Shown: positions 13,174 through 60,041, counted from the stretch's first letter. The stretch is 64,000 bases of DNA from a virus (IMGVR_UViG_3300035099_000047:108228-172227), one strand, 5' to 3'. Made by a program: numbers and translations. The notes: generated by a model from the sequence alone, not told the origin.

Positions 13174-13566
13174 TTAGTCCTCTTCATCATCAAAGTAACC
13201 AGGTCGGTCCTTAGCCCAAGCCTCAAATGCTTCCCAAGCAGATTGCATTTCTGCTCTGAATTGTTCTTCTAACATAGCCACCATCTCCTCTGGTTTCAAC
13301 GAATCACTATATTCTGGATTGGTCCAATGTTCAAAGGAACTCTTCAGGCGCTCAAATACAATAAGAGACAGGCTCTCCTTTTCCATTGGACCACGAGGGT
13401 TCAAGCTGTTGTCAGGTCTCCCAAGGTGAACCCTCTTGTATTGAGGAGGCGGATGACCAAACTGCTTATAAAAATTATGAAAATGCTTGTAACGAGGATC
13501 ATCAGGATCCATAAACTTTGCTTCTGCTACTATCTTATTTACAGCCTGTTCAAACCGGTCCATCAC
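13174..13566 (-). CDS. Hypothetical protein, tagged
   Basis: MDRFEQAVNKIVAE. Confidence 0.65.
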   Translation of the reverse strand: MMDRFEQAVNKIVAEAKFMDPDDPRYKHFHNFYKQFGHPPPQYKRVHLGRPDNSLNPRGPMEKESLSLIVFERLKSSFEHWTNPEYSDSLKPEEMVAMLEEQFRAEMQSAWEAFEAWAKDRPGYFDDEED

Positions 13567-14981
13567 CCAATCTCCAACAGGCGATCAATCAACTTATTGG
13601 CCTCGACCTCTAATGATTCCATTCCCCGCCTGCGCCGAAAGTATGCTGGCACACCTGGACCTTCAGGCTCCTCTTCCTCCATGCCTTCCGGTTCTTCAGG
13701 TTCCTCTCCACCTCCGGGCTCTTCCTCTTCACCTTCCTCAGGCTCTTCTGGTCCGTACTCACCCCAATCCTCTTCGCCCTCTTCGGGCTCTTCCTCACCC
13801 TCTTCAGGCGCAGGGATCTCAGCCCCGAACTCCTCACCTTCTTCGCCTTCTTCCCCCTCTTCACCAGGAGGTGGACCTTGACCGGGCACACTTACCAATT
13901 GACCCCCACCCCCAGGCAGACCGGTAGCCGGATTGATGCCTTGCATACCACCACCGCTCATGCCTCTTCCTCCACCGGCCCCGCCTGCAGCAGCCTGGGG
14001 TTCACCTGGGGATTGACCGGGCTGACCTGGCTGACCAGGCTGACCCGGTTGAGGCAGTCCCTCTGGCCCGTAGCCCGGTCCACCCGTACCCAACACATCA
14101 ATCTCTTGCTCCGTACTCAAAAACACCCAACAACCATCCTCAGGCCTTTGAATAACTTGGGCTCCAGGCATGATTTGACGAAAGCTGGCCAACAACCTCC
14201 CCGCTTTGTCTTCACCCATGCTGGGGTCAAAGAACACCAGAATGGCATCCAGATCTTGCTCAATTGACGCCGTCAAATAATAGTCCAACAAGTCCAACAC
14301 ATTGATACGCAATACCAAAGCGTTGAAGAACTCGTCCATAGATGGCCGGTACTTCAATGGTTGATTGTACGCCGCTGCCGTGGGATCGAGCAATCCAACC
14401 CCTTCTTGCATACGGGCTGTACCTTTTATCAGCCGGTCCACTAATTGTTCCACTGTAGGTGAAACACGGTTGATACGAGCAATCAAATAATCCAACGCTT
14501 GGTCAAAAGCTAGCCTCGAAGCTCGTGTCACATCGTCCAAAGCTATACCATACCATTTATGAATCGCCCTTTTAGCCTTTGCCCAATCCACTCCATAACT
14601 CTTTTCCCCAGTGAGCACAGCAACCTGTGCTTTCAAAGTCTCCAATTCTTCTGGATCCAATGCAACCCTTTTTTGCAAACTTTCTACTGGGCTACCACGC
14701 TCCACCGGTCGTGGAGGACTGGGATTAACTTGTTCTGGGGCTGGACGGGCTTCAGGCGGACGGCTTTCGTCTGGAGGGCTTTGCTTAGCTTGTTTAGCTT
14801 GCAACAGCTTTTCCTTGACCCGATGAGCCAAATCACTTTTCAAAAAGTCCTCAGCTGGTTGCAACCGACTCAACCGGTCCCGGCTCACAATAGCTGCTCG
14901 TTCCGGTCCCTCATCCCGCATGGGTGTGGGATCCGGTACCGGGGCCTCAGACAACAGGTGTTCGATGAGCTGGTTAATCAC
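13563..14981 (-). CDS. Acidic Gly/Pro/Glu-rich protein, putative prohead core/internal protein; tag at N-terminus, internally and at C-terminus
   Basis: MINQLIEHLLSE; TVEQLVDRLIKG; MES-LEVEANKLIDRLLEIG; PGQ and EEG repeats. Confidence 0.6.
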   Translation of the reverse strand: MINQLIEHLLSEAPVPDPTPMRDEGPERAAIVSRDRLSRLQPAEDFLKSDLAHRVKEKLLQAKQAKQSPPDESRPPEARPAPEQVNPSPPRPVERGSPVESLQKRVALDPEELETLKAQVAVLTGEKSYGVDWAKAKRAIHKWYGIALDDVTRASRLAFDQALDYLIARINRVSPTVEQLVDRLIKGTARMQEGVGLLDPTAAAYNQPLKYRPSMDEFFNALVLRINVLDLLDYYLTASIEQDLDAILVFFDPSMGEDKAGRLLASFRQIMPGAQVIQRPEDGCWVFLSTEQEIDVLGTGGPGYGPEGLPQPGQPGQPGQPGQSPGEPQAAAGGAGGGRGMSGGGMQGINPATGLPGGGGQLVSVPGQGPPPGEEGEEGEEGEEFGAEIPAPEEGEEEPEEGEEDWGEYGPEEPEEGEEEEPGGGEEPEEPEGMEEEEPEGPGVPAYFRRRRGMESLEVEANKLIDRLLEIG

Positions 14982-14987
14982 AGCACC

Positions 14988-15655: not shown

Positions 15656-15662
15656 ATCATCA

Positions 15663-15947
15663 CTAATCTGGAAAAGCCTTTTTCAACAAATCACGCTGGT
15701 GCTCTTTGGGCAACTCTCGGAAGAATTCCAAAGACTGATTTATGTAAGGGTTGGCCGATCGATATCTCCCTTTCATTACGATTTCCAAAACAAATGCTCT
15801 TTCATTCAAGGCCGAAGTTAAAGCACTAGAAGTACGGTCATAATAGGCCCAAACTCTTTTCAAAGACTCAACAACCCATTCTTCCCAACCCATGATAGGA
15901 TTGTTCCAAATGCTGAGATTTTCGACAGCTTCTTGAAACAAACCCAC
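15663..15947 (-). CDS. Family B small protein, tagged
   Basis: VGLFQEAVENL; WEEWVVESLKRVW; FFRELPKEHQRDLLKKAFP. Confidence 0.7.
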   Translation of the reverse strand: MGLFQEAVENLSIWNNPIMGWEEWVVESLKRVWAYYDRTSSALTSALNERAFVLEIVMKGRYRSANPYINQSLEFFRELPKEHQRDLLKKAFPD

Positions 15948-15949
15948 CT

Positions 15950-16642
15950 TCACCACTCCCAAGCTTTGCGTTCTTCCTCCCTATCCAATATCTCTTCGCC
16001 CCACGCACGCCATATCTCATTGCCAACCAAGCTAGGCACCCGTCGACCTTCTACAGCAGCATAGTTGAACACCAACCCCTCCGTGTGAGGATTCACAGCA
16101 TAGTAAATCTCAATACGGGCATAATCTCCATCCACCACCTGGTCCAAAGTGCCTGCTACATCCGCTGGTATCTGAACATCCGCTTGCATACCCCGCTCTT
16201 CCCACCACACTCCATCTTCATCCCGGTATACATCTATCAAAAACTGATTTTCCAACTTGCCCAGATACCCACACACCAGCTGCTTAGGGTCTTGACCCTC
16301 CAACAACTCATCTACCAAAGCTTTTTCTCTTTGACCACCATCCACCAAACCATTCAAACGCTCCACCAAGTGGCGATACCTATCCACCAAGCTATCGGCC
16401 ACACTTGCGCCGTTGAAGAGCTTGGAGTATATTTGGTCTTGGCACTCGTGAATCCGCTTCAGCGTGCTGCAAAACAAATTGTTGCGAACGTAATCGTTGT
16501 TTGGCCTAATGAGTTGCTTTTCCACTGCAGCCTTCACTACAGCCTCATATACCTCCAAGTCCCGAGACAATTCAGGACGTGGACCCAACTGGGCCAATGC
16601 GTTGCGCCAAACAGGGAGTTGAACCGGTTCAGTCATAATCAA
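15950..16642 (-). CDS. Hypothetical protein with internal tag-like motif
   Basis: 230 aa; EKALVDELLEG. Confidence 0.6.
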   Translation of the reverse strand: MIMTEPVQLPVWRNALAQLGPRPELSRDLEVYEAVVKAAVEKQLIRPNNDYVRNNLFCSTLKRIHECQDQIYSKLFNGASVADSLVDRYRHLVERLNGLVDGGQREKALVDELLEGQDPKQLVCGYLGKLENQFLIDVYRDEDGVWWEERGMQADVQIPADVAGTLDQVVDGDYARIEIYYAVNPHTEGLVFNYAAVEGRRVPSLVGNEIWRAWGEEILDREEERKAWEW

Positions 16643-16949
16643 ACCACTCCGAAGGGATTGCCCTGTTCAATAACGAAACTTGGTGTCCTGGAGGCAACTC
16701 CCGGTAAAGTTGCAAAGCTTCCAAATCGGACGAAATTTTATCCATTTCCATCTTGGTAACCACATCATGAACCACTTTCCTAACTTTTTCAACTTTAGAA
16801 AGTTTATCTGATACGTGGTCCCAAGCATCTCCAACCATTATATCGTCAATGAGGCCCCAAACTTCTTGCAAAGCTCCAATCACTCGATCTTCCCAAAAAA
16901 ATTGTTGGGATTCCGCAAGCTGGTTTACACCTTGTTCAAAACTATTCAT
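16629..16949 (-). CDS. Family B small protein, tagged
   Basis: MNSFEQGVNQLAE; WEDRVIGALQEVW; LYRELPPGHQVSLLNRAIP. Confidence 0.7.
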   Translation of the reverse strand: MNSFEQGVNQLAESQQFFWEDRVIGALQEVWGLIDDIMVGDAWDHVSDKLSKVEKVRKVVHDVVTKMEMDKISSDLEALQLYRELPPGHQVSLLNRAIPSEWFDYD

Positions 16950-16954
16950 ATTCC

Positions 16955-17266
16955 TCACTTGAACAATGGGCTCGCAGAAGCCCTGCGCACATGTTGCACT
17001 GCCCGCCTCAAATGATTTATCACTCGTTGACGTTCAAAGTCCCAAGCAGGCCCTACCTCTGGGTCTCGCATACGGCCAATCCGTTGTACCATCCCTTCAA
17101 TCTCATGCAACAATTCGTGAATATCATCCAACCTCGCTTCTTCAAGCGGTTGTCGAGCGCTAGGGCCCATCAGTTGCTCAACCAAATAGTGAATATCACT
17201 TGTTAATGCTAGCTTGGCCATACTTGGACCAAAACTTTCTGCTCCAAACAAAAACTGCTCCATCAT
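16955..17266 (-). CDS. Hypothetical protein
   Basis: 103 aa; YLVEQLMG tag-like; start uncertain. Confidence 0.5.
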   Translation of the reverse strand: MMEQFLFGAESFGPSMAKLALTSDIHYLVEQLMGPSARQPLEEARLDDIHELLHEIEGMVQRIGRMRDPEVGPAWDFERQRVINHLRRAVQHVRRASASPLFK

Positions 17267-17675: not shown

Positions 17676-17697
17676 TACGAACCTCCAACGGTTCAAG

Positions 17698-17742: not shown

Positions 17743-17758
17743 GAAACCGGAGAACCGC

Positions 17759-20192: not shown

Positions 20193-20531
20193 TCAATACC
20201 AACCATCTGGGAATGCCTTTTTGAGCAGCGCTTGTTGGTGTTCCTTGGGTAATTCCCGAAAAAGTATCACAGCCCCTTGATCCTTAAATTTTGGATCACC
20301 TTCTGCAAACCCAATTTGCACGAACCACAATATCTTATTCCGAACCCTTTCTGCAGTCACTGCTGGTCTTTGTCTCTTAATAGCATGCCAACCAGTCCCC
20401 CAGAGCTCGTAAACATACTTCCCGAGCTGGTGCAAATACTCAATCATCCGATCTTCCCAAAACCGCTCATCAGAATGGGTCTGTGAGTCTTCTGTTAGAT
20501 TACAAACAGCTTGTTCAAACAACCGACCCAT
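20193..20531 (-). CDS. Family B small protein, tagged
   Basis: MGRLFEQAVCNLTE; LFRELPKEHQQALLKKAFP. Confidence 0.7.
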   Translation of the reverse strand: MGRLFEQAVCNLTEDSQTHSDERFWEDRMIEYLHQLGKYVYELWGTGWHAIKRQRPAVTAERVRNKILWFVQIGFAEGDPKFKDQGAVILFRELPKEHQQALLKKAFPDGWY

Positions 20532-20533
20532 TA

Positions 20534-20851
20534 CTAATATCCTTTAGGAAAGTATTTCCCAGGAAAAGCTTGTCTCAATAACTCATCTCTTTGTTCTCCT
20601 GGCAACTCTTCAAAGAACTCCAAGGCTTCCATATCCAAACCCCACCTTTTCAGCGTTTCATCATCCAAGTAACTCAACTCATACTCCACTTCCCATCGCA
20701 CATAGTCAGCATCTACTTCAATACCTTGATATTGGGCACTGTCATATACCTGATCCGCTATTTTGTCCCAAACATCGTGCAAAGCCTCTACCACCCGGTC
20801 AAGAAATGAATCCTCCATCAGTCGTTGAACAGATTTTTCAAATCTACTCAT
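20534..20851 (-). CDS. Family B small protein, tagged
   Basis: MSRFEKSVQRLME; FFEELPGEQRDELLRQAFP. Confidence 0.7.
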   Translation of the reverse strand: MSRFEKSVQRLMEDSFLDRVVEALHDVWDKIADQVYDSAQYQGIEVDADYVRWEVEYELSYLDDETLKRWGLDMEALEFFEELPGEQRDELLRQAFPGKYFPKGY

Positions 20852-20855
20852 TTTA

Positions 20856-21140
20856 TCACCCAGGGAAAAGTCGGCACAAAATGTCCCACCTTTGCTCAGC
20901 AGGCAACTCCACGTAAAACTTCAATGCATTCCTATCTGGTACTATGGGAAACCACTCTGGTTCAGCATCTTCTCGAGCCAATTTGTCCACGAACCTTTTC
21001 AACATATCAAATTCCATTGGAGTCTGTGGCTCTAACATTATCTGGGACCTCAACTGTTTCAATACTCGGTCCACCCTTCCAAGCCAATCAAAAGGCTGCT
21101 CCTTTGCCATACTCTCAACCAACTTCTCGAACTCCCCCAA
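20856..21140 (-). CDS. Family B small protein, tagged
   Basis: LGEFEKLVESMAKE; FYVELPAEQRWDILCRLFP. Confidence 0.65.
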   Translation of the reverse strand: MGEFEKLVESMAKEQPFDWLGRVDRVLKQLRSQIMLEPQTPMEFDMLKRFVDKLAREDAEPEWFPIVPDRNALKFYVELPAEQRWDILCRLFPG

Positions 21141-21141
21141 C

Positions 21142-21336
21142 TCACCGTCCTCCCAAATCCACATTACCCCCCTGGCTCTTGCCCACTTTACACAGTCCTA
21201 GCATCTCCAACACTTCCGCTTGTGTCCGTCCAGTCTGTTCGACCAATCGGTCCACTAACTCCAACGGGGCACTCCAATGGGTTGCCTTGTTGTAAACCCT
21301 CTCGCCATAGATTTCAGTGCCCTCTTGCGGTTTCAT
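21142..21336 (-). CDS. Small hypothetical protein
   Basis: 64 aa; LELVDRLVE. Confidence 0.5.
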   Translation of the reverse strand: MKPQEGTEIYGERVYNKATHWSAPLELVDRLVEQTGRTQAEVLEMLGLCKVGKSQGGNVDLGGR

Positions 21337-22007
21337 TCCTCGCCCTCCAATAAACGGTTGACTATTTGCTCAAATTCGCTTTCACTATAAGGCGGGTAAG
21401 CCTGACCTGTGACTTGCTTGAAACGTGTAACAAATGAATGAGGATCGTAACTCGGATCAAACCCCAAACCCAATACTTCCATAGCAGCTTGCTTCTCAAG
21501 CCCCCACAACAAGTGCAACTTTTGTAGCAACTTGGCCTTTTCCTTTGAGGTCAAGGGAATGCTACGAGGTCCAACTTTTCTCAATTGTTTAACAGGCAAT
21601 GTACCTTCATGAGAAACGGAAACCACTATGGGATAATCCGGATGAACTGTCCTCAATCTCTCAATGCTACCCCGAAGCCCATTGATGATCCTTCCTAAAT
21701 CTTGATACAATGGGTGTTCTAGGGGTTCTGGGTTCCAAAAACTAATCACAATCATCCCTCCACCCAAACCCAATCGGCCATACAAAACCGGAGTATCCCC
21801 ACGGCGAGTATAGTCCTCTAAATTCAATTCATCCGGATATTGGTTTATCAAGTATCCATGATTCCGATCACCAGGGCCAGTGAACAACTTGCGAGTTCGG
21901 GTGTCATAAGCAAACGTGACCGAGCGAGAGTCTTCAAGCAACCAGTCCGGTGTTATCCATTGCTCACGGTAGACTTTGAGCGGATCCCATTCCATTTCAT
22001 CACCCAT
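21333..22007 (-). CDS. Hypothetical protein with C-terminal tag
   Basis: Ends YSES-EFEQIVNRLLEGEE. Confidence 0.65.
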   Translation of the reverse strand: MGDEMEWDPLKVYREQWITPDWLLEDSRSVTFAYDTRTRKLFTGPGDRNHGYLINQYPDELNLEDYTRRGDTPVLYGRLGLGGGMIVISFWNPEPLEHPLYQDLGRIINGLRGSIERLRTVHPDYPIVVSVSHEGTLPVKQLRKVGPRSIPLTSKEKAKLLQKLHLLWGLEKQAAMEVLGLGFDPSYDPHSFVTRFKQVTGQAYPPYSESEFEQIVNRLLEGEE

Positions 22008-22269
22008 TCAACAACCGCTCCACTGCCTGCTCAAACTTTCCACTCTCCTTGACTCTAGCAACTTCATTGGCATTCTTTTCCAGCCAATCCAAGAATTGCT
22101 CCTGGTCATATTGACAGCCAGTTGCCACTGCACGGACAAATTCCTGCATAGGCATCTTTTTAGGCACATATTCCTTCGGGATGCCGTTGATCTCAATGAT
22201 CAACCCCGTGCGACCCAAAGCAAAAGGCTTGGGTCGGCTTTCATGCATTCGACGTTTGGTACTGGCCAT
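22000..22269 (-). CDS. Hypothetical protein with C-terminal tag
   Basis: Likely start MASTKRR; ends VKES-GKFEQAVERLLNG. Confidence 0.6.
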   Translation of the reverse strand: MASTKRRMHESRPKPFALGRTGLIIEINGIPKEYVPKKMPMQEFVRAVATGCQYDQEQFLDWLEKNANEVARVKESGKFEQAVERLLNG

Positions 22270-23071
22270 TGTAAACCCTTTCAAATAACTTTTTGTGCTC
22301 TTCAACCCAATAGTTTTCATTCCATTGAGCAACGCTCAACGCATAATTTTCACGCCGAATATACAAACCTCTCAGCTGCAAAACCAAATCGTCAAAGTCA
22401 TTTGGCTCATAAGCTATCACACCAGGGTGGGCTGCAAAGTCTTGTTGCAATCCCACTCCGCGACCGATCATTACCGGCACCCCACTCGCCAATCCTTCCA
22501 TTACCGATAACGGGCCAGCTTCATGAGTTGACGTAATTAGTACCACATCACTCTTGCGCATCATAGCATACAGTTCAAACGGAGTCAAATTACCCCCGCT
22601 TTCAAGCACCTCAACCCACTTGTATTGCCGCAAGCGGCTCACCCACTCATACCGCTTGCGGTTGTCATAACCAGGGGGGTGACGATGAGGCCACAACACT
22701 CGCAACGGCCGTGGGCTACAAAGCTGATGAACCGGGGGAAATATCAAACTGACTCTATTGTATCCCACCAACTGACCCACCTGTTGATAATACTTGCTAC
22801 TAAGGGTAACACAATGATCCACAGCTCGGGCTATGCGGTTGTAACGCTCTCCATGTTTACCCGGTAGGCTGTGGGTCATTAGAGCCACTATTGGTCTAGG
22901 TACCCTACCACAATGCTCGTATTCCAAATATGGTACAAAATAGGTGAGATCATATTTGGGTTGAGACCAACTTTTGGTGTTGTAATAAACCTCCACTCCA
23001 GGTATGTTCAGCAACAAGTCCGCAAGCCTTCGGCAAACCCAGCTTGACTCTGCAAACACTAGCACCTTCAT
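22241..23071 (-). CDS. Glycosyltransferase, GT-B/GT4-like
   Basis: DVVLITSTHEAGPLSVMEGLASGVPV. Confidence 0.85.
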   Translation of the reverse strand: MKVLVFAESSWVCRRLADLLLNIPGVEVYYNTKSWSQPKYDLTYFVPYLEYEHCGRVPRPIVALMTHSLPGKHGERYNRIARAVDHCVTLSSKYYQQVGQLVGYNRVSLIFPPVHQLCSPRPLRVLWPHRHPPGYDNRKRYEWVSRLRQYKWVEVLESGGNLTPFELYAMMRKSDVVLITSTHEAGPLSVMEGLASGVPVMIGRGVGLQQDFAAHPGVIAYEPNDFDDLVLQLRGLYIRRENYALSVAQWNENYWVEEHKKLFERVYNGQYQTSNA

Positions 23072-23895
23072 CTTCTGTGCTCACAAATCATACTTGGGTT
23101 AAGGTATATTCGGTCATGACCCCCAGCGGCCATTGCCTTGTGTAAACCAACATGCTCACACTCGGGACCACTATACTGATATGGTAACACACTGCTCATC
23201 CGATAAAATCCCAAACCTCCAAAACAGCTACTCACCCTCATCAAAGGAGAACCCCGCCGGAGTATCATGTTGGCAATTTCACGATCCGGGTGAGGTTCCG
23301 GATGATCCAGCTTGCGAAATGCCCAAGTGTCATAATGACGATAACGTGAGCCTAACTTGATCAGTCCCTGGCTACCCACCATGTCCCAATCCTCATAGTA
23401 AAACGTGGTAGCAATGCCATCCAAATCCCAATCATGCAAATCCAAGTCAACTACGCAGTAATAATCGAACTTAGAATAATATCGCCGCACTTCATCTAGC
23501 ACTCGGTTGCGAGCAGCAGCCATGTTATCCATCCGCTTAGTGCTGCGACTGTCTCGACCTGTGGAACCAAACTTCGCAGTGCCCAGCCTTTCAGAAATCA
23601 CAGACAGGTTAGGAAATCTATCCTCCAAAATCCGCAGATACTCTACGGTACGATCTACCGAATCATTTTCGTAAATGACCACTTGGTGTTTTTCAAAAAG
23701 CGACACCAAATCACTTAACCGTTGAGCAAATCCAGGTATGAATTTGGCTACGTCCCTACCTATGGCCCCAACTACAACGCTGCTCCGAAGCATACGGTCA
23801 TGGCCCTTACGAACCTGATCATGGTACTTCATCAAGGAATTGGGAGAATCCAACTGATCATTCACAATCCTAGTTTTGCTAACAATTGCTGCCAT
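23068..23895 (-). CDS. Glycosyltransferase, GT-A (CAP59-like)
   Basis: IYENDSVDRT, MAAARN, VVDLD, YDTWAFR, VSSCFGG, CEHVGLH. Confidence 0.75.
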   Translation of the reverse strand: MAAIVSKTRIVNDQLDSPNSLMKYHDQVRKGHDRMLRSSVVVGAIGRDVAKFIPGFAQRLSDLVSLFEKHQVVIYENDSVDRTVEYLRILEDRFPNLSVISERLGTAKFGSTGRDSRSTKRMDNMAAARNRVLDEVRRYYSKFDYYCVVDLDLHDWDLDGIATTFYYEDWDMVGSQGLIKLGSRYRHYDTWAFRKLDHPEPHPDREIANMILRRGSPLMRVSSCFGGLGFYRMSSVLPYQYSGPECEHVGLHKAMAAGGHDRIYLNPSMICEHRR

Positions 23896-24896
23896 GATTG
23901 ATTAAACCTCAGCTGACGATTTTCTAACCCCTGAAACACCCGGTGCTTCAACTCGTTAAGATTGTCCAGTGCATATCGCAAAGCCCCCAAGTAACTTTGA
24001 TAAGCTACCTCATCTTGCTCCACCTCTGGCACTCCATCCCTAAACCAATGGAGTGAACATTTAGCCAATGAAGCATTGACCCCATGGGCTAAATACTCCC
24101 CCAATGGAGGCACGTCATAGGCAACCACAGGGGTACCAACCGCAATGGCCTCTAAACCCATGAGGCCAAGGCCCTCTCGTGTTGTAGGCCACAGAAACAA
24201 ATCAGCCATACGCAATGCATGATTATGAGTAACTGAATCTGGATTGGCCATCAGTTGTACCTCTGGCAACCTGTTCATTTCCAACCTGTCACGAGGTAGC
24301 AAGTGCCCTACATAGTGCACTGCCAACTCCAAATCCCTATCTTCCTTCAGCATTTGGTTCACAGCCCGAAACACGAAGTCCCCCCGCCGTCGGGGTTCTG
24401 GCAACCCTTGGGCAAATAGCAGCTTGATAGGTTTTCCATTTGAAGGTGGCTTGCTAGTATGAATTGGCACCATCCAGGGTATGTAAACTGTCTTGTTAGC
24501 ATATCCTCGATTTTGCAGCAATTGATAGCAACCAGCCGTAGGAGCTACCAACACATCGGCTATCCTAGCGCTCTTTTCATAATCTACAAACCGCTCCCAC
24601 ATCACCACGTACACACTTTTGACCCCCTGCTTGACATTTTCCTGAACTTGGTCTAAGGGGCAGTGGTGAATGAAAAATACAGCCTTGGGGCGGTGTTTGT
24701 TCAACCAGGTTGGATAAGCACAGTTGCGATCAATCCAATGCCGCTCCCGAGGGTGAACTCCATCCTCGTACTTTTCAAAAGGGCGAATGGTGGAAGGCAC
24801 CCTTTGATCAGCTAACATGTCAGCCATCTGGGCAGCCATGTAACTGATGCCCTGACGCCGCCACCAACAGCTGAAACCTACAGCCATTTCAATCAT
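23862..24896 (-). CDS. Glycosyltransferase, GT4-like
   Basis: ADLFLWPTTREGLGLMGLEAIAVGTPVV. Confidence 0.85.
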   Translation of the reverse strand: MIEMAVGFSCWWRRQGISYMAAQMADMLADQRVPSTIRPFEKYEDGVHPRERHWIDRNCAYPTWLNKHRPKAVFFIHHCPLDQVQENVKQGVKSVYVVMWERFVDYEKSARIADVLVAPTAGCYQLLQNRGYANKTVYIPWMVPIHTSKPPSNGKPIKLLFAQGLPEPRRRGDFVFRAVNQMLKEDRDLELAVHYVGHLLPRDRLEMNRLPEVQLMANPDSVTHNHALRMADLFLWPTTREGLGLMGLEAIAVGTPVVAYDVPPLGEYLAHGVNASLAKCSLHWFRDGVPEVEQDEVAYQSYLGALRYALDNLNELKHRVFQGLENRQLRFNQSWQQLLAKLGL

Positions 24897-25450
24897 CCTT
24901 CAAATGCATATCCAAATCTTTCAATTTCCCATTCGCTATAGCTAGCAACCTTATCTATCAATTCTGGAGTATAATAGGTTGAATAATGATCACGATCCAG
25001 GTGGTTTAATCGTGGGTAATTATCAACAGAAATATGGAAACGGTCGGCTATGGGTACCAGCGATTGGGGCAATTTTTCATACATTCCTATGTAATCCACC
25101 AACGGAGAATTGTCCAAACATAACCAGTATTGTTGTCCAGGAGCAAAACCAAAGTGAAAATCTACAAACTCCTCAAAAGTCATGTGAGCCGGGATTAAAC
25201 TGCTTGCTTGATGATAAGAATATGCAGAAACCATTCTCTCCCATGGATTCCTAACAAATCCAAACTTGAAGGATTGGGCGAACAGCTGAGGACTTAACAC
25301 TGTGCGAATAACTGACGCGGCAACATGATAAGAACAACCTCTCAGCACATCCAAAATCCCATTATTTTTTAACCAACTACGCAAGCTACTCCCAGCCGTT
25401 CTAGGCACATGAACGAAAATGGCCATGATTGGTTCAAAAACTATCACCAC
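24893..25450 (-). CDS. Sulfotransferase family 2 protein
   Basis: FVHVPRTAGSS (PAPS loop) and FVRNPWERMVSAY. Confidence 0.85.
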   Translation of the reverse strand: MVIVFEPIMAIFVHVPRTAGSSLRSWLKNNGILDVLRGCSYHVAASVIRTVLSPQLFAQSFKFGFVRNPWERMVSAYSYHQASSLIPAHMTFEEFVDFHFGFAPGQQYWLCLDNSPLVDYIGMYEKLPQSLVPIADRFHISVDNYPRLNHLDRDHYSTYYTPELIDKVASYSEWEIERFGYAFEG

Positions 25451-25486
25451 ACCAAAATCCTTCGATTTACACCATTCCCACCCCCA

Positions 25487-26440
25487 TCATTCCGCCTTAT
25501 CCAAAGTATATCCTACCACAGCTTTAACCTTAGGATCAGCTATCAACCAAGGCAAATCCAACTTTTCCCAATGATAGTATTCCCAAATAGACAACCCATT
25601 ACTCCAACGCAACCTTTCACTATTCACCCAATCCCTGGTTTTAGCTACTAAGCACCCTCCTCGACCATCCGGTCTGAATAAACTAACACCCATTTTGAGA
25701 GGCAAAATGGATACCCTTATTCCTAAGTTCCTAACAAATGCCCGAAACTGAGGCTCTGGCCCCAATCGGTAATCTTGTCCGCAGAAGGTTGCAGCCCCAT
25801 CCGACGAAGTATCATAGCTTCCTATGAAATTCACAAAATGGGACACCTTTGCCATGACTTCTGGACGACCATAGAAAAAGTTATCCATGCCATACCAACA
25901 TAGATCCCCATCCATCCAAGGAATCTTAGTATTCCAAAAGGTGTCCAACCTACCTCGTACCCAAACATCATAAGAACCCCACCGTTTCTCTGCTACAACA
26001 GCAGACAGAACCTCCAGCAAGAACCATTGATCCAAGTAGCGTCGGGCTGAAGGTTTCAATTGTTTTGCAACAGGGTCATACCACGCCACGGACTCCTTTG
26101 TAGGATTGAACCATCTAATTCGATTCTGGTAGTCTAATTCCAAAGCCCGAATTTTTTCATCATAACCGGGCAAGTGTTCAGTATACCCAAAATATACCAA
26201 CCTACGTCCCAAGGTTCTGCGTATAAGTTCTTCATCCTCCGGAGTCACTTCGTATCGCAAATATGAATGAGGTCCAACATCCTTCACAAAAGCGTGCATA
26301 TTATAGAAACTACCACCAATCACAAACACATCAGCATTAGTTTCCTTTATCAATTGCTCTACTAATGAAAACATACCTATCCGAAAGGCTTGAAAATTAC
26401 CAGGCAGCATCACTGCCCATCTTTGACTGCTCAACATCAT
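25487..26440 (-). CDS. Putative glycosyltransferase
   Basis: AVMLPG, YDVWVRGRLD, DNFFYG; cluster context. Confidence 0.5.
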   Translation of the reverse strand: MMLSSQRWAVMLPGNFQAFRIGMFSLVEQLIKETNADVFVIGGSFYNMHAFVKDVGPHSYLRYEVTPEDEELIRRTLGRRLVYFGYTEHLPGYDEKIRALELDYQNRIRWFNPTKESVAWYDPVAKQLKPSARRYLDQWFLLEVLSAVVAEKRWGSYDVWVRGRLDTFWNTKIPWMDGDLCWYGMDNFFYGRPEVMAKVSHFVNFIGSYDTSSDGAATFCGQDYRLGPEPQFRAFVRNLGIRVSILPLKMGVSLFRPDGRGGCLVAKTRDWVNSERLRWSNGLSIWEYYHWEKLDLPWLIADPKVKAVVGYTLDKAE

Positions 26441-28100
26441 AAAATCTCCTCAATTCGGCTGCCCTTCCATTGTCTAACCATTTAGCTAAATCCTGCCTGA
26501 AACGGTACACAGTACCCTCCTCCTCCTGTCTCAAGCCACATACTGCCGTATCCATCTCCATGATGTTTCTCGCCTCAAATAAACATTCCCAAGTGATAGG
26601 GTCCAAATACCGAGTTCCCTCCCAGTCCCGGCGATGAGCCAAAAACCACTCCTTAATAGCTGGCTTCCAACTACCCCATAATTGGTCATGTCTCAAATGC
26701 AAGCTTTTATGTACTTCCAATGGTAATCGTATGCAATTCGGAGCCAACCCTCGATGGTTTAATTCATTCCAAGCAGCTCCCAGCAAGTCATACACATCTT
26801 GGAAAGCCTGCCTTTTTGCTAAATCCAAAAAATGGATAGCTTCCAACCATCTTTTGCTCACAAAAAACTGATCTTCTTCCCACACAACGCTGTTATAATC
26901 AGGTTCTCGACCAAACCACACCCAATGAGACGTAGGTATGTTTTCCCCGGCTTCAGCTATGGCTTCCCAATTTTTAGAACCTAACACCTCTTCAAAGGCT
27001 GTAGAAGTTCCAAAATCGGAACGCACAGCTCTCCAATTCTTAACATTTTTACCAAATCTGCGCAAGTTGCCTAATGCAATCCACGGTCGCTTCATTCTCA
27101 AGAATTCCACGGTTTTCTTCAACCGATTTTTACACCAGAAGAACTCAGTATGTTCCACACTAAGATATTGACCTTTCAACAACCCCCACACCCGTCTCAA
27201 AGAATCACATACATCCCAAATCGGGTATCCGGCCACTACTTCATGCCTAGCATTAACAAAATCTATAGGAAACGGTTGCTGGCTAACCAGCTTCATAGCT
27301 CCCTGAGCATCTGGTCGCTGGGACACTACTATCAACTGGGTTCTGGACAAACCACCAGAATTCAATTCTCTCATGCTTGCCAGATAGTATTCCAGGTATT
27401 TCAAAGGCTTTTCAGAATCATCCACAACCACGATAGACAACAGAGGAGCTTTGCTTTCAACCGGCGTAATGACCATTGGCGGAGAGCAGACCGGTTCATT
27501 GAACAATTCTTGCTTAGTTACAACACAATCAGAATGAACCTTGTTCCCACAATTGTTGTAGCAAACCCATTTCAAGGGCACCCCCAACCTTTCTAATTGT
27601 TTTTTGAACACCAAGCTCCGATTAGGGCTAACCAAACTAGGTATGCAACCAGTTAGAACCTTGGAATCAGTGTGTACCACAACCTCTCGGATCCGACTAT
27701 TTGGCACCAAACCAATCACCCTTTCCAAAGACCACACGGAGGTACACTTAACCCCTTGGGACAACAACATATCCCGGTGCCAACAAGCTCCGCAGAAGAA
27801 ATTTTCGCCCCACTCGCTGTCGGCGGTAATGATTACTTCAGCGAGACTCAACTGATGCAACATTCCTTTGACGTCTTCACACTTCAATGGCCCCAAGCCT
27901 TTGTTTACCATCAATTGATAGTATTCTGAAAAAGGAGTGAGATAAACATCAAAACCAGACAGCTCCTGGCCATCCAACAATTTATCCACCACACAAACTC
28001 TTAACCCAAGCCCCAATTTTTGCAAAGCGGCTGGGCCTTGGCTTGTATAAACCACGTTCAAGGGCAGCGATCCCTGCTTATTGGATCCGACTCTGAGCAT
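26397..28100 (-). CDS. Putative glycosyltransferase (GT-A-like C-terminal part)
   Basis: LLSIVVVD motif; cluster context. Confidence 0.4.
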   Translation of the reverse strand: MLRVGSNKQGSLPLNVVYTSQGPAALQKLGLGLRVCVVDKLLDGQELSGFDVYLTPFSEYYQLMVNKGLGPLKCEDVKGMLHQLSLAEVIITADSEWGENFFCGACWHRDMLLSQGVKCTSVWSLERVIGLVPNSRIREVVVHTDSKVLTGCIPSLVSPNRSLVFKKQLERLGVPLKWVCYNNCGNKVHSDCVVTKQELFNEPVCSPPMVITPVESKAPLLSIVVVDDSEKPLKYLEYYLASMRELNSGGLSRTQLIVVSQRPDAQGAMKLVSQQPFPIDFVNARHEVVAGYPIWDVCDSLRRVWGLLKGQYLSVEHTEFFWCKNRLKKTVEFLRMKRPWIALGNLRRFGKNVKNWRAVRSDFGTSTAFEEVLGSKNWEAIAEAGENIPTSHWVWFGREPDYNSVVWEEDQFFVSKRWLEAIHFLDLAKRQAFQDVYDLLGAAWNELNHRGLAPNCIRLPLEVHKSLHLRHDQLWGSWKPAIKEWFLAHRRDWEGTRYLDPITWECLFEARNIMEMDTAVCGLRQEEEGTVYRFRQDLAKWLDNGRAAELRRFYDVEQSKMGSDAAW

Positions 28101-28782: not shown

Positions 28783-28836
28783 GACGTTTAATCCACCTAG
28801 TTTGTTGTCTAGCCAACGGGGAGGGGACAATTGGAC

Positions 28837-30205: not shown

Positions 30206-30208
30206 TGT

Positions 30209-31015: not shown

Positions 31016-31069
31016 TTACCCACTTTTGAATAGATGTTTCACAATTTAACATTACTCTAATAGAAGTCA

Positions 31070-34691: not shown

Positions 34692-34695
34692 AATC

Positions 34696-42562: not shown

Positions 42563-43924
42563 TCAAAAGGGAATTCCCACCTTTTCCCCTTGCTTAATTT
42601 GTTCATCCGCCTTCTCAAATGCGTCCAAATCCCAATACACTTCATCACCCGAATCCAACTTCTCTGCAGCATTGAGGGCCATTGCTTGGGCGCTTTTGAT
42701 TAATGGTCCCCAACCAACAGCTCCACCTACAATAGTTTCCTGTTCGCCTGGCAAGGGCAAATAATAGTATTGGTGATCCAAGCAGGCAAGATTACGAAAC
42801 TTCAAGTTGCGGGTCAAATCAGGTGGAAAATCCAAAGGCAACGGATCGGTGACAGTTTCACGAGCCTTGAGCACCAATTGGGCCCAATAAGTAGCCCTCG
42901 GGCGAGGTTCCAATTCCTCCCCTTCAGCCACAGCCATCATCAATGGACCCATATTCAAATAAGCTTCGCTTAGCACTTCGCCTGGAGGTGAACCAAAGCG
43001 CATGCACGGATCTATGAAATATCTCTTGGAACCATCTTTGCTCACCCGCAGTTCAATACTCAATGCACCACGCACCAGGTAATGATGATACACAGGTAAG
43101 AACTTGTCCATCACCACTTTCAGTGCCTTGGGTACCTCGTCCAAATCACAAACCAACCCACAATAGGCCGAATTTTTGATCTCGTACCCATACATCCCTC
43201 GGGGCAAATAACCAGTCTTGGTAAAGAACCACTCACAGCCTATTTCAACCGAACTCTCTAATGGATCTTCAACAATGAATTCCACCGATTTATCCAACAC
43301 CCCCAGGGTATGAGCCATTTTGTTTAGTTGAGCCTTGGAGTGCTTGTAATTTTTATGGTAAAACGTTTCACACACTCCACGATACTTGGAAATCTTGATG
43401 TATTTGTCTGTTGAGCGTTCCAATTCCTTTCGCAAAGCATCAATTCCCACCACCACTTTATAAGGAGGCACAGGCAAGCCCACCTGCTTGAGCACTCGAC
43501 GTAACATGGACCGATCAAATTCCAACACCTCACCCTTGCTGGTACCAAACACGTTGAAACCCCGGCTGCGCAGGTCTTCTTGGAGATCTGAGTGCCCCAC
43601 ATCCGGAAAGACCACCAAATCGGGCTTGTACTGGTTCAGCGTGTCCCAAAAGCTGGAAACCTTGGTCACTCCAGGTACACCAGAACCCAAGTGATCCATC
43701 ACAGGTACTGGCAATGACCCCTCCCACGGGTGAAAATAATAGACATCATCAAAGTGCTCAGCCAATCGCTGAGCTATGTACAAAAACATCCCGTAATCAT
43801 AAAGCAATACACTCTTACCTGTGCGAGCATGCCTTTTGAAAGAACGAGCAGGCCGGTCCTGTTCTTCAGGTTCCGGTGCTTGTTCGTCTAACAATTGATC
43901 AACTGCTATGGAGAACGTATCCAA
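42563..43924 (-). CDS. ATP-grasp ligase (PurD-like phage family), tagged
   Basis: VFG...LEFDR...GLPVP...YIK...FIVE...IDPCMRFGSPP; start (L)DTFSIAVDQLLDE. Confidence 0.7.
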   Translation of the reverse strand: MDTFSIAVDQLLDEQAPEPEEQDRPARSFKRHARTGKSVLLYDYGMFLYIAQRLAEHFDDVYYFHPWEGSLPVPVMDHLGSGVPGVTKVSSFWDTLNQYKPDLVVFPDVGHSDLQEDLRSRGFNVFGTSKGEVLEFDRSMLRRVLKQVGLPVPPYKVVVGIDALRKELERSTDKYIKISKYRGVCETFYHKNYKHSKAQLNKMAHTLGVLDKSVEFIVEDPLESSVEIGCEWFFTKTGYLPRGMYGYEIKNSAYCGLVCDLDEVPKALKVVMDKFLPVYHHYLVRGALSIELRVSKDGSKRYFIDPCMRFGSPPGEVLSEAYLNMGPLMMAVAEGEELEPRPRATYWAQLVLKARETVTDPLPLDFPPDLTRNLKFRNLACLDHQYYYLPLPGEQETIVGGAVGWGPLIKSAQAMALNAAEKLDSGDEVYWDLDAFEKADEQIKQGEKVGIPF

Positions 43925-43928
43925 GGAA

Positions 43929-45113
43929 TTATGCCTTTGCAAAGGGCATTACGCGGTTCAACCGGCCAACTTGATGAGCAGCAACGAGCAGTTCATCAGA
44001 GGTTGGGTCCGTCCCCGCGCGAGTCGCCCTTGATTCCCCAAGGGCGCGAGCGAGAATCACCTGCGCTGCTGCATGGTCACGCTCACACTCGCAACCACAC
44101 TCGCAAGAGTGCCACCGCTCGGATAGTTCTTTCGGCTTGACTCGACCGCAATTTGGGCAGGTCTGTGAAGTGCCATGGGGATCGACTGCAACAGCCGACC
44201 GCCCGGCCCATTCTGCCTTGACGGAAAGTTGATTGCAGAAGGTTCCCCATGCAGCATCAAGGATGGACTTAGCAAAGCGCGTTCGAGCCAATCCCTTGAT
44301 GTTCAAGTTCTCATAAGCAATCAGGTCATACTTTTGGACAAGAATACTCGTATGTTCATGGCAGAAGCATCTCCGTTGGGCAGCTATACGCTCATGTTGC
44401 CTCTGAAGGGCCTTGACCGCCTTGCGGCGTCGTTTGCTTCCCTTTTGCCTCCTTGATACCCGCCGCTGCAAGGCCCGCAGCTTGTGCGCTGATCTCTGGC
44501 CCCATCGTGGGTTATCAATGAAAGTGCCGTCACTGAGGGCTGCAAAGTGAGTCAATCCCAAATCAATTCCAATAGCTAACTTGACAGGCCGCATGGTAGG
44601 GGGTTGCTGTCCATCGTCTAAAACGATCTGGGCATACCAGCCACTTGCCCGGCGGATGATTCGCAACACCCGCTGTTGCCCTTCAGGCAAAAGCCGGCCA
44701 CGGCAGCGGATGCGCCCCATGTTGGGAACGCGGATGCGGTCGCCAACCAGATAGTTTCCAACAGCTGCATATTCCAACGAGTTGTAACGATGCCGTGATC
44801 GGAAACGGGGGAATCCTGGCCTCTCCCCAGTTTTCAAGCGTCGGAAAAATGCCTTCATGCCCAAGTCTACCCGTCGCACCGCATCCCGCAGAAAGCCAAG
44901 CGGCACGGCTCGAATCCAATCCATCCGCCCACGCCACTCAGTCAAGAAAGTGTATTGATTGTAAAGACTGACCTGCTCCCCTCGCCGCTTGTATGCTTTG
45001 ATCCGCATCTCCAAGGCTTTGTTGTAAACCCAACAACACACCCCAAGCCAACGGTCCAAAACTTGAACTTGGCTTTTGTTGGGATACAGCTTGTACTCAA
45101 AAGTGCGAATCAT
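43929..45113 (-). mobile_element. tnpB: IS200/IS605-family RNA-guided endonuclease TnpB without adjacent TnpA
   Basis: FEYKLYP HTH start; RuvC GIDLG / YENLNI / RDHAAA; zinc finger TSQTCPNCG...CECG. Confidence 0.92.
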
Positions 45114-45119: not shown

Positions 45120-45608
45120 CTAGTATTCTTTCACCGATTTCGCAACATCATAACGATGCAACGCTTCTTCACCCTTTTTAGTGATTTGATACACATACCG
45201 ACCAGGGGGACCAAAACGAGTTATCCAACCCAATGGCCTAACCACTCGGATCCGTCTCCCAAGAAGCCCAACCCGAGTTCCAGCCCGTGATTTATACTCA
45301 GGATCATACCAATCACCAAGCCTGAGCAAGGATCCAGAAAGGGTTAAGTCGGACCTCCTCGCCTGCTCCCTCTTGTATCCATAAGGTCCTGAACACGCAG
45401 GAAATTCAGGATATTTACGGCGAATCTTTTCACATCTACGGCGCATCTCTTCCCAAACAGCCCTGTGATAAGCCCGGCGCAGTTCGTCCCAAGTACACCC
45501 TTTCAAAGCCACCCGTAACAATGCGGCTTGGTAGTCCGTAGGAAATGGGTCCATGCGGGAACCTTCAAGCAGTTGGTCTACCAACTGTTGGATCACAGGG
45601 ACGCTCAC
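45120..45608 (-). CDS. Family A protein with insertions, tagged
   Basis: IQQLVDQLLE; LLRVALKGC; YQITKKGEEALHRY. Confidence 0.65.
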   Translation of the reverse strand: MSVPVIQQLVDQLLEGSRMDPFPTDYQAALLRVALKGCTWDELRRAYHRAVWEEMRRRCEKIRRKYPEFPACSGPYGYKREQARRSDLTLSGSLLRLGDWYDPEYKSRAGTRVGLLGRRIRVVRPLGWITRFGPPGRYVYQITKKGEEALHRYDVAKSVKEY

Positions 45609-45645
45609 GTTTAACCCACCTAGCTGGCCGTTTAACAAGCGATAG

Positions 45646-56489: not shown

Positions 56490-56528
56490 GATTCTTCTCC
56501 CTTGTTGGTGAAACCGGATTTTGGACCA

Positions 56529-57512: not shown

Positions 57513-57518
57513 CTCCTG

Positions 57519-57731: not shown

Positions 57732-57736
57732 GCTCT

Positions 57737-57940
57737 TTAACTTTCCATCAACAACTTCTTGCCCCCGCTACTTTCTTGAATTTTAGCCTTGGGGTATTCG
57801 GAAACTTGCTTGGTAACAGTGTCCAACACCTGGACTTTACCATCCGCAGTCTCACCAATTTTCTGAAACCTTTGTTGCCCCTGATCCGGCAACCCGCTGC
57901 TGGGCAGGTCCTCCCGCAAGGTCTTTTTCATCAATAACAT
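57737..57940 (-). CDS. Small hypothetical protein
   Basis: Strong AAAAGGAG RBS; overlaps the HU-like gene. Confidence 0.55.
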   Translation of the reverse strand: MLLMKKTLREDLPSSGLPDQGQQRFQKIGETADGKVQVLDTVTKQVSEYPKAKIQESSGGKKLLMES

Positions 57941-58244
57941 AGTCAATCTCCTTTTCAATTCGATCCCGTATAGAACTCAACTCCACCAATTCTAGCTTGT
58001 TACGGTAGTATTGGTGAAACTCAACATCTATCAGAGTATCCGTCAACTCTTTTTTTGTACGGCGATGGACCTGCTTGCGACGCAGATGGCTTACCAACTT
58101 GCCAAAATGTTCCAGCTTGACTTCATCTCCCACTGCCATTGCACGCTTAATAATATCTAGCAAACAGTCTAAATAAACCTCTGATTCTGCCAGCGTGATG
58201 CCCAATTTCTTGGACACTCGATTCACCAGTTCGTTGTAAGTCAT
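57852..58244 (-). CDS. HU/IHF-like DNA-binding protein
   Basis: MTYNELVNRVSKK...GDEVKLEHFGK. Confidence 0.8.
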   Translation of the reverse strand: MTYNELVNRVSKKLGITLAESEVYLDCLLDIIKRAMAVGDEVKLEHFGKLVSHLRRKQVHRRTKKELTDTLIDVEFHQYYRNKLELVELSSIRDRIEKEIDYVIDEKDLAGGPAQQRVAGSGATKVSENW

Positions 58245-60041
58245 TTATCCAACCACCAACTGGTTCACCAAGCTATCCAAGTTGACATTTGATTCAGATT
58301 TGTTAAGCCCACCTTTGGAATACCTGGGGACCACCAATTCCTGAAACAAACGACGGGCTACAGTCAAAAAGGTATCAAAATGGTTATCCAGGTACTCGAT
58401 AAACTCAATTGCATCCCGAACTTGGTTCTCATTCTGCCCTAAATTAAGGGAAAAACTCATCTCCATGAATACATTGTCTCTTCTGTCCGTCCTAAAAGAA
58501 AAATACGGTTTGATATCAAACTTGCCAGAAAACCGTTTCTGGTGCAGCTCCGGCTCACCCCAAAACAATCGCTGTCTACGGGCTTGAATAGTGTAGTTTC
58601 GGGCCTGACGCTCCGCCTGCTCATTCAGTGATGGCAACAATTCATCCACAAATTCCTTGAACCCAGGATCTGTGTCGCGTATGGGTACAGCGTACCCTCC
58701 ACGGTGGAAATAATCTCGCGGCAATTCTCCCACCAACACTGGTTCAACAGTCCAAACCTCTATTGCATGAGTACTCCTAAACCCACGAGTGGCATCTCTG
58801 TACCAATTGAAATGCTTAAACTGGTCTTCGTCCCATGCTTCTTCTGTTCTACCATATCCCATTGCTTTGCTAACAGGGTGAGTAACCTCAGCATACTCAT
58901 TCTCTATCAAAATAGCACGAACTCCAGCTATGAAAGCCTCCCGGTTATCCTCCACATCCCTTGCCAACCAAGCTGCAAAATCCCTAAACTGGTCTGGTTC
59001 ACCACGCATGTCTTCGTCTCGCAAATCGACTACAACTCTTACACCAGTTACCATCCCCCTTTCTACAGTCTCTAGAATCTCAACCTGTTCCACCCCCCAA
59101 ATGTCCAAATCATGACACAAATCCTCAATAGTCCGTTCCAACGCTCTCCTATCCAGACTTCGCCAATCTAGGAATTCCTCCTTCATTTCCATCGGTATGT
59201 CTGCCGCAACACCCCCAGAATACCACACGTAAGGTTCATTCTCTCCAATATCCTCAATTTCATAACTGGCGAAAGCAAAATGCAAATCTCTCAAATAGTC
59301 ATTTTCAACCCGTGCACACTCCTCTTCATATGCATCCCACTTATCTTCACCTCCAATCCAATCCTCCCACTGTTTCAAACGTTTTTCGTCCTCTTCACTA
59401 GGCTTGATCAGCTCGGCTATTCTATTTTCTGGGTTTCTTACCTCACTGTTATCCGCTCTCCTGACTTCGTTAAAGTCTGCGGTAAACTGAATGAAAGGTT
59501 TACCATTCTTCATCACGATATAAAGGGCCCCATAATCGTGCAAGTAATCCTCTGCCTTACAACCCCTTGGATAGCTCCTGCGCGTGCACCAGCTAGTACC
59601 TTCTCCCAATGATTTCAAACTTTCTGCATCAGTAACCTTCAAAAGCACGTAAGGAGGGTCCCGCCTGACCACCTCTACCCCAGGCATTTGGCTGTACCCA
59701 ACGGCGCCAATAGCATCCACCAAATCTGCAAAATTAGGATACCGATGAATGTCAGGACTGATCTTAACCCCTCGCTCTCTCTTCAACTCGGTGAAACGAT
59801 GCAACAATTGTTTTACCTTGTCTTTGTCCTCCGGCAAGCTGATTTGTTTATTCACCCATTGTTTCAAAACCCACACATCGTATTTATGACCCAACGTGGG
59901 ATCAGCATCACTGATAGCTTGAACAATATCCTGCTCCGACAAACCCAACACCCGTTGAGCCTTGGCCATCATTCCTGGCTGAATGGCCTCCCCCAGCAAA
60001 TGACTTACCAAGTCATTCAATTGCTCTCGTTTCAAGGCCAT
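58245..60041 (-). CDS. Family C (PcfJ-like) multidomain protein, tagged at both ends
   Basis: LNDLVSHLLGE; DADPT; LGEGTSWCTR; ends KSES-NVNLDSLVNQLVVG. Confidence 0.65.
   Translation of the reverse strand: MALKREQLNDLVSHLLGEAIQPGMMAKAQRVLGLSEQDIVQAISDADPTLGHKYDVWVLKQWVNKQISLPEDKDKVKQLLHRFTELKRERGVKISPDIHRYPNFADLVDAIGAVGYSQMPGVEVVRRDPPYVLLKVTDAESLKSLGEGTSWCTRRSYPRGCKAEDYLHDYGALYIVMKNGKPFIQFTADFNEVRRADNSEVRNPENRIAELIKPSEEDEKRLKQWEDWIGGEDKWDAYEEECARVENDYLRDLHFAFASYEIEDIGENEPYVWYSGGVAADIPMEMKEEFLDWRSLDRRALERTIEDLCHDLDIWGVEQVEILETVERGMVTGVRVVVDLRDEDMRGEPDQFRDFAAWLARDVEDNREAFIAGVRAILIENEYAEVTHPVSKAMGYGRTEEAWDEDQFKHFNWYRDATRGFRSTHAIEVWTVEPVLVGELPRDYFHRGGYAVPIRDTDPGFKEFVDELLPSLNEQAERQARNYTIQARRQRLFWGEPELHQKRFSGKFDIKPYFSFRTDRRDNVFMEMSFSLNLGQNENQVRDAIEFIEYLDNHFDTFLTVARRLFQELVVPRYSKGGLNKSESNVNLDSLVNQLVVG

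Follow-up and report, generated by a model that had tools for sequence, protein, structure and literature searches.

Genes and tagged proteins of the locus

The stretch of DNA examined here (the window; IMGVR_UViG_3300035099_000047, positions 108228-172227) covers the final 64 kb of a virus contig from IMG/VR (172,227 bases; completeness estimated at 78%), and nearly all genes in it are encoded on the minus strand. The window encodes a T4-type head gene set, with matches to PF07068 (gp23-type, 1.8e-46), PF03420 (Peptidase_S77, 1.9e-09), PF07230 (gp20-type, 2.9e-38) and phrog_207. Grouped around the capsid, protease and portal genes are genes for otherwise unrelated small proteins that have in common an amphipathic helix, F-E-Q-A-V-x-x-L-L-x-E (hereafter the tag), which is mostly N-terminal. 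In some proteins the helix lies instead at the C-terminus or at a junction between domains. The occurrence of the dipeptide Glu-Ser ahead of these non-N-terminal copies exceeds chance, though the cases are few, and its possible meaning is the main subject of this study. The virus itself has no close relatives in the databases that were searched: its capsid protein is at most 34% identical to those of the nearest GenBank phages, and an IMG/VR search with the capsid returned a single relative (L002, 38%), itself without this tag.

We built a position matrix for the tag from the phage's own instances, nearly all of which are N-terminal. Over the whole contig, this matrix found approximately 50 copies on the coding strand, against 0-2 when the opposite strand or reversed sequences were scanned. 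With a small hidden Markov model (HMM), 37 N-terminal copies exceeded the best score obtained from the reversed proteome, and about 40 proteins carry the tag at their N-terminus. Approximately four in five of the N-terminal copies (29/37) end in [LIVMC]-x-Glu, which is the cutting rule of the T4 prohead protease gp21. Position -2 of the N-terminal tags is rich in Asn, Asp, Gly and Ser, residues typical of helix caps. A trailing Glu was observed in 30/37 N-terminal copies vs 7/12 C-terminal ones, a difference that was not significant (P = 0.12).

From these sequence features, the tag is predicted to be a capsid-docking peptide, of which the C-terminal and junction helices are probably working copies. 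Alternatively, the helix might not label cargo for the capsid but serve as a docking or recognition peptide for some other hub, for instance a host factor or an enzyme that modifies the tagged proteins. In that case one would expect to see it at both termini, and its function would require no protease. The position of the tagged genes around the head genes, the aliphatic-x-Glu of gp21-type enzymes at the end of most tags and a site of the same kind in the capsid propeptide all argue for the capsid and against another hub, which we consider most improbable.

Tag copies away from the N-terminus

An earlier note on this stretch, made from the sequence alone, had claimed that four proteins end in the tag and that each time it directly follows Glu-Ser. 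The stop codons of the four open reading frames (ORFs) lie at 21333, 22000, 13563 and 58245, and the protease gene, which enters the argument below, ends at 8696, all on the minus strand (Table 1). All four C-termini do read as quoted, with Glu-Ser and then a helix, but only those at 21333 and 22000 are unmistakable tags, while the other two are weak and without Phe. Less than 0.1% of internal sequence windows reach the matrix scores of the two clear tags. Each C-terminal tag is in frame with the upstream coding sequence, and codon-usage scoring indicated that the coding frame switches after the stop. The same note had described two proteins as tagged at both ends. For the proteins of 472 and 602 amino acids (aa), this description holds only at the level of weak, Phe-less helices. 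On a second score, which ignores the Phe and Glu columns of the tag matrix, their N-terminal helices rank within the top 0.4% and 1.2%, respectively; the values of this score for the weak C-terminal copies are given in Table 1.

Outside the window, a strong internal tag (13.5 HMM bits) was found in a 359-aa ORF at contig positions 99827-100906, approximately 7.3-8.4 kb before the window starts. This ORF is laid out as tag, domain, Glu-Ser (in the form Trp-Glu-Ser), three residues, full-strength tag and domain, and looks like a natural two-cargo fusion.

The claim that the tag is independent of position was borne out, since the helix occurs as a peptide-level module at the N-terminus, at the C-terminus or at a domain junction. 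As the earlier note had also argued, the C-terminal copies speak against a translation-initiation explanation, and a DNA-level explanation is likewise disfavoured. Indeed, the third codon positions are almost uninformative across 45 tags and the Ser codons of the four Glu-Ser sites are varied (AGC, AGT, TCA and TCA), hence the conservation of the tag lies in the peptide and not in the DNA. A ribosome-binding site or other DNA-level cause of Glu-Ser itself was rejected, as both families of Ser codons are represented and there is no start codon downstream that could be used. We also considered a programmed frameshift leading from the tag into the downstream gene, but only the 22000/21333 junction allows a +1 slip, and the other three junctions do not. 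The possibility that the ORF ending at 22000 is a degenerate copy of the domain of the 224-aa protein was rejected by a profile search in all six frames.

Table 1. Head genes, tagged proteins and their Glu-Ser sites in the window (positions counted from the first base of the window; bits refer to the position matrix unless HMM is stated).
Feature	Position	Strand	Remarks
gp23-type major capsid protein	7174..8664	minus	N-terminal propeptide with conserved Val-Leu-Ala-Glu45 then Ser, plus Leu-Leu-Glu84 site
Prohead protease of the T4 gp21 type (Peptidase_S77), continued by a long scaffold-like tail	8696..10258	minus	8 Glu-Ser pairs
472-aa acidic low-complexity head-region protein	13563..14981	minus	three Phe-less tag-like helices, one at each terminus and one internal
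Weak C-terminal helix of 472-aa protein, 16 residues	13566..13613	minus	1.7 bits; top 1.1% on the Phe/Glu-blind score
Glu-Ser (GAA TCA) before C-terminal helix of 472-aa protein	13614..13619	minus	
Phe-less N-terminal tag of 472-aa protein	14946..14981	minus	top 0.4% of random windows
224-aa protein ending in full-strength tag	21333..22007	minus	27.9 bits; HMM 12.0 bits
C-terminal tag of 224-aa protein, residues 211-224	21336..21377	minus	
Glu209-Ser210 (GAA AGC) before tag of 224-aa protein	21378..21383	minus	within family-wide [S/G/T]-[E/D]-[S/G/Q] domain-end motif
Small ORF, 82-110 aa depending on start codon, with full-strength C-terminal tag	22000..22332	minus	27.0 bits; HMM 15.7 bits
C-terminal tag of small ORF, last 13 residues	22003..22041	minus	
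Glu-Ser (GAG AGT) before tag of small ORF	22042..22047	minus	after Val-Lys
459-aa protein with N-terminal tag and degenerate tag-like stretch near C-terminus	42563..43942	minus	19.4 bits; Glu-Ser absent before second tag
602-aa protein beside portal gene	58245..60053	minus	weak tag-like helices at both ends
Weak C-terminal helix of 602-aa protein, 14 residues	58248..58289	minus	1.6 bits; top 0.5% on the Phe/Glu-blind score
Glu-Ser (GAA TCA) before C-terminal helix of 602-aa protein	58290..58295	minus	
gp20-type portal with intein	60118..62607	minus	C-terminus: Leu-Ala-Glu-Ser then weak tag-like helix

Glu-Ser ahead of the tags

Glu-Ser is not enriched genome-wide, with 212 occurrences observed vs 233 expected. 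In a ranking of 248 C-termini that was blind to Glu-Ser, the four C-termini named in the earlier note were all among the top 6. An upstream Glu-Ser was present in 4 of these 6 top-ranked C-termini vs 17/248 overall (binomial estimate of approximately 3e-4). When C-terminal windows were drawn at random, four of them shared any dipeptide in 4.5e-5 of trials and two of them in 8.5%. The strongest non-N-terminal copies according to the HMM (n = 3) all have Glu-Ser at 2-5 residues before the Phe. In two of them, the ORF at 22000 and the internal copy of the 359-aa ORF, the tag has a capping residue of its own (Gly or Asn at position -2), and Glu-Ser precedes this residue by 1-3 positions.

The sample is small, and the pattern may have been over-read: there would then be two solid C-terminal tags, in one of which Glu-Ser is explained by a motif of the protein family, and the remaining cases would be ordinary amphipathic helices with Glu-Ser before them by coincidence. 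On the full matrix, the helices at 13563 and 58245 indeed reach just about the top 3% of random windows, which leaves two of the four tags statistically weak; the protease tail gives no significant match; and a dipeptide shared by two random windows is no rarity, as the above proportion indicates. This explanation has to contend with the blind ranking, with the rarity of a dipeptide common to four random windows, with the third strong non-N-terminal copy, which was found regardless of Glu-Ser and also has it, and with the homologues that retain Glu-Ser. We find it very improbable that over-reading accounts for the whole pattern.

Relatives of the tagged proteins

Relatives were compared at the level of single proteins. 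The 472-aa protein has three metagenomic homologues (P0001, P0002 and P0003), two of which, P0002 and P0003, retain the C-terminal helix with Glu-Ser before it. The C-terminal helix of this family shows approximately 45% identity. P0001 has a Phe-type tag and an extra domain at the place where its homologues end in the helix.

For the 224-aa protein, 30 relatives were found. The closest of them end in a Phe-type helix after [S/G/T]-[E/D]-[S/G], and Glu209 is nearly invariant among the single-domain relatives. Three others (P0008, P0009 and P0013) are made of two or three repeats of a unit composed of the domain, [S/G]-[E/D]-[S/G] and the helix, with no N-terminal tag and always a C-terminal one. 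Because these chains thus begin with an untagged domain and invariably finish with a tag, the domain followed by the tag is the ancestral unit of this family. Two giant relatives, P0011 (1524 aa) and P0020 (1675 aa), contain 7 and 10 separate stretches, respectively, that match the domain, and are possibly long arrays of it. Distant relatives of the 224-aa protein also occur at five IMG/VR loci, all of them without the tag. In a distant 354-kb phage, the helix flanking the 224-aa relative has a different sequence and is confined to that one gene. An AlphaFold model of the 224-aa protein, built with the alignment of its relatives, has a confident core at residues 1-140 (predicted local distance difference test, pLDDT, of approximately 90). 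After a coil comes a helix at residues 209-221, which is modelled with low confidence and seems to be detached from the core.

On the enrichment of Glu-Ser in a larger set of sequences, on which the earlier note had made its claim depend, these families point both ways. Glu-Ser in two of the three homologues of the 472-aa protein and the near-invariance of Glu209 favour it, but Asp-Ser takes its place at some junctions and the motif is also found without the helix, as detailed in the next section.

Fusion or fission at tag boundaries clearly occurs in this group, as seen in P0001, P0008, P0009, P0013 and the 359-aa ORF. The C-terminal and junction tags might accordingly be by-products of such events, left behind when polyprotein-like units were split by stops or frameshifts, and Glu-Ser would then have no role of its own. 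The two or three fused domain-plus-helix units of P0008, P0009 and P0013, the tag and extra domain of P0001 and the tag, domain, tag, domain order of the 359-aa ORF are all compatible with such an origin, as is the overlap of the 22000 stop with the start of the 224-aa gene, where a +1 shift would fuse tag and domain at a junction resembling that of P0008. What it leaves unexplained is the recurrence of Glu-Ser in unrelated proteins. Moreover, the domain-then-tag order that is ancestral in the 224-aa family does not fit an N-terminal tag that was displaced, the 472-aa family has conserved its C-terminal helix, and paralogues indicating recent fusions were looked for and none was found. An origin of the tags as mere by-products therefore appears improbable to us.

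Other searches were negative. The putative cargo proteins matched no Pfam or PHROG family, the cargo domain had no fold match at E <= 0.001, and the protein atlas gave no lead. No match was obtained in IMG/VR for the 224-aa or 472-aa protein or for their alignments, nor among GenBank phages for the 224-aa protein, nor were relatives found in scans of JGI metagenomes. A search for relatives of the small ORF at 22000..22332 found none. When the tag was searched for as a degenerate DNA pattern, 44 isolated matches were obtained, approximately the number estimated for chance, and no contig with several tags.

Glu-Ser and the head protease

Enzymes of the gp21 type cut after Glu, and the rule for T4 gp21 is aliphatic-x-Glu (PMC5694885, PMC9026906). 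In T4, gp21 trims the protein Alt at each of its termini (ITE-6 and LTE-619), with 63 residues removed (PMC5694885). In phage SPN3US, the protease gp245 prefers Ser after Glu and trims off its own C-terminal propeptide (PMC10052503). An Asp at the cut position prevents processing in T4 (PMC9026906).

The protease-scaffold protein of the window has more Glu-Ser pairs than the 2.2-3.7 expected (Table 1). Candidate sites for self-cleavage of the protease are Val223-Glu224-Ser225, where the S77 domain ends, and Leu-Met-Glu-Ser near the C-terminus. The former and Glu301-Ser302 are shared without change by the protease of L002, which likewise ends in Val-Glu-Ser and a short helix. The earlier note had cited the protease as ending in LMES followed by six residues; the tail does read so, but it gave no significant tag match on either score, and it may be aligned equally well so that Glu-Ser falls within a short tag-like helix, similar to the internal helix of P0001-P0003. 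In the capsid protein, alignment to mature T4 gp23 would place the N-terminus near residue 80, beside Leu-Leu-Glu84. L002 lacks this site. Val-Leu-Ala-Glu45 is invariant, and in the present phage the next residue is Ser. Overall, Ser follows aliphatic-x-Glu at 8/48 sites in the capsid protein, protease and portal vs 61/824 sites elsewhere (P = 0.03). As a separate observation, Pro-Val-Glu-Ser-Leu-Gln is common to the 472-aa protein (residues 98-103) and the end of the protease domain (residues 222-227), and it is not conserved in the homologues of the 472-aa protein.

The earlier note had proposed that the C-terminal tags are released by cutting between Glu and Ser. The enrichment of Glu-Ser before non-N-terminal copies and its retention in some relatives are consistent with this proposal, as are the precedents of Alt and SPN3US gp245, the aliphatic-x-Glu-Ser sites of the capsid protein, protease and portal and the apparently detached C-terminal helix of the 224-aa protein, but they do not establish a cut site. 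Based on the sequence, Glu|Ser is a predicted point of release of the tail tags by the head protease, to which we would give slightly less than an even chance. Several observations weigh against it. At P3, two residues ahead of the Glu, the Glu-Ser sites before tags have Tyr (21333), Val (22000), Gly (13563), Lys (58245) or Pro (internal copy). Val is the only aliphatic residue among the five, so that most of these sites depart from the aliphatic-x-Glu rule of the N-terminal tags. Ser is not preferred after the Glu of the N-terminal tags either (3/29). The tag-like C-terminus of the ORF at 42563-43942 is a counter-example without Glu-Ser, and the junction tag of P0001 has no adjacent Glu-Ser. 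Among relatives of the 224-aa protein, Asp-Ser is found instead of Glu-Ser at four junctions, once in P0010 and three times in P0013. Ser-Glu-Ser or Ser-Glu-Gly is kept in P0018, P0030, P0031, P0033 and locus L050, yet these proteins end within a few residues and have no helix. Finally, AlphaFold begins the C-terminal helix of the 224-aa protein at Glu209 itself.

Many of these points would be expected if Glu-Ser were a structural junction, that is, the start of the helix or a linker and, in the 224-aa family, the domain's own end motif, with a helix that docks and either stays or is removed elsewhere. This is the main alternative to release at Glu-Ser. The motif without a helix, the Asp of P0010 and P0013, the predicted helix start at Glu209 and the misfit of P3 with the rule of the N-terminal tags all suit a structural junction, and so do the helix-cap residues favoured at position -2 of the N-terminal tags. 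In the ORF at 22000 and in the internal copy, Glu-Ser is not the helix cap since it lies upstream of the tag's own capping residue. Furthermore, it is specifically Glu, and not any acidic or polar residue, that recurs in unrelated proteins of a genome in which Glu-Ser is not generally common. Weighing both sides, we regard a purely structural Glu-Ser as somewhat unlikely, though with a substantial chance of being correct.

Comparison with known systems

The tag arrangement is a variation on the capsid-targeting and propeptide theme of T4, in which a capsid targeting sequence (CTS) on the internal proteins IPI-III is removed by the prohead protease gp21 (Mullaney and Black, 1996; reviewed in PMC9026906). 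Like the CTS, the tag is a short N-terminal peptide common to unrelated proteins, it ends in aliphatic-x-Glu, and the genome has gp23/gp21/gp20-type genes. Unlike the CTS, it is longer (approximately 11-13 residues), has a different sequence and is carried by approximately 40-50 proteins rather than a handful, and the helix is also found at C-termini and domain junctions, which is not described for the T4 CTS. Alt, as a packaged protein with removable pieces at both termini that are cut off after Glu, provides a precedent for the proteins with tag-like helices at both ends. However, the C-terminal site of Alt obeys aliphatic-x-Glu, whereas the Glu-Ser sites mostly do not, and its two propeptides have not been reported as copies of one motif.

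The protease propeptides of SPN3US (gp245) and phiKZ offer another comparison (PMC10052503, PMC5694885). The SPN3US enzyme prefers Ser after Glu, and the protease of the window and that of L002 end in Glu-Ser and a short helix. In SPN3US, by contrast, only the protease has a C-terminal propeptide and all other substrates lose N-terminal pieces; in addition, its motif has Ala two before the Glu, where the residue is variable here.

Short terminal peptides that dock cargo inside an HK97-fold shell are also represented by the cargo-loading peptides of encapsulins and by the C-terminal docking regions of the HK97 protease and of the P22 scaffolding protein. Such peptides can work when transplanted, in encapsulins at either end, and they are generally not cleaved off. 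The resemblance of the tag to these docking peptides is one of working mode only; the sequences differ, and we claim no membership in any of these groups.

Other features of the window

Two expanded families of small tagged paralogues are found at 2353-5772 and 45120-45638, and also at 15663-16958 and 20193-21164. One family ends in Y-Q-T-T-E/K-K/R-G (at least 6 copies) and the other in E-L-P-x-E-H/Q-x-x-x-L-L-x-x-A-F-P (5 copies); neither had a match in Pfam. On the minus strand at 3851-4188, an ORF with an N-terminal tag (3997-4188) overlaps another in a different frame (3851-4132), and the two combined resemble one frameshifted copy of the neighbouring paralogue of approximately 100 aa at 4175-4489, which has the tag and a conserved Y-Q-T-T-E-K-G tail. 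The pair is either a pseudogene or a sequencing frameshift.

A gene for an HU/IHF-type DNA-binding protein (PF00216, 2.9e-09; 57852-58244, minus strand) directly follows the 602-aa gene, near the portal gene, and could encode a DNA-condensing head protein. An IS605-type OrfB/TnpB gene (43929-45113, minus strand), with HTH_OrfB_IS605, OrfB_IS605 and Cas12f1-like TNB domains, lies inside the block of tagged genes. Between tagged-gene blocks, a long run of sugar-metabolism genes (22241-35619, minus strand) includes an NAD-dependent epimerase/dehydratase and a GT4 glycosyltransferase, the latter of which also matches a 'conflict system' GT4 family.

A possible docking and release system for head proteins

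As a whole, the observations are best explained by a docking helix with release at Glu-Ser, an explanation that we put forward tentatively and as not quite an even bet. According to this explanation, a portable docking helix would tie otherwise unrelated proteins to the scaffold core of a T4-type prohead. In the approximately 40 proteins with an N-terminal copy, the aliphatic-x-Glu at the end of the tag would serve for cutting of the gp21 type. In a minority of proteins, the same helix stands behind a folded domain (two clear and two weak C-terminal cases and at least one domain junction). There, a short flexible piece with Glu-Ser joins domain and helix, and its Glu would be the most likely point at which the head protease frees the cargo.

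A more far-reaching reading is that of a single docking helix used in either orientation under two cut rules, aliphatic-x-Glu after N-terminal copies and Glu|Ser or Glu|Gly before C-terminal ones. The helix would then load single, double-tagged and domain-plus-tag polyprotein cargo that the head protease dismantles in the capsid. Taken jointly, the two cut rules and the polyprotein cargo make up a reading that is conceivable but doubtful.

Should Glu-Ser turn out to be merely structural, a modest point would be left, namely that the tag is position-independent and hence a peptide signal rather than a translation or DNA element. On the other hand, if the helix loads cargo whichever terminus it occupies and is then cut off on the corresponding side, the cargo rules of T4-type phages would be broader than an N-terminal-only CTS, and the multi-domain "cargo polyproteins" of related phages would be explained. 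Proteases of the gp21 type would then accept sites outside the aliphatic-x-Glu rule when these lie beside the docking helix, and there would be a second, C-terminal route for the packaging of foreign proteins into phage heads.

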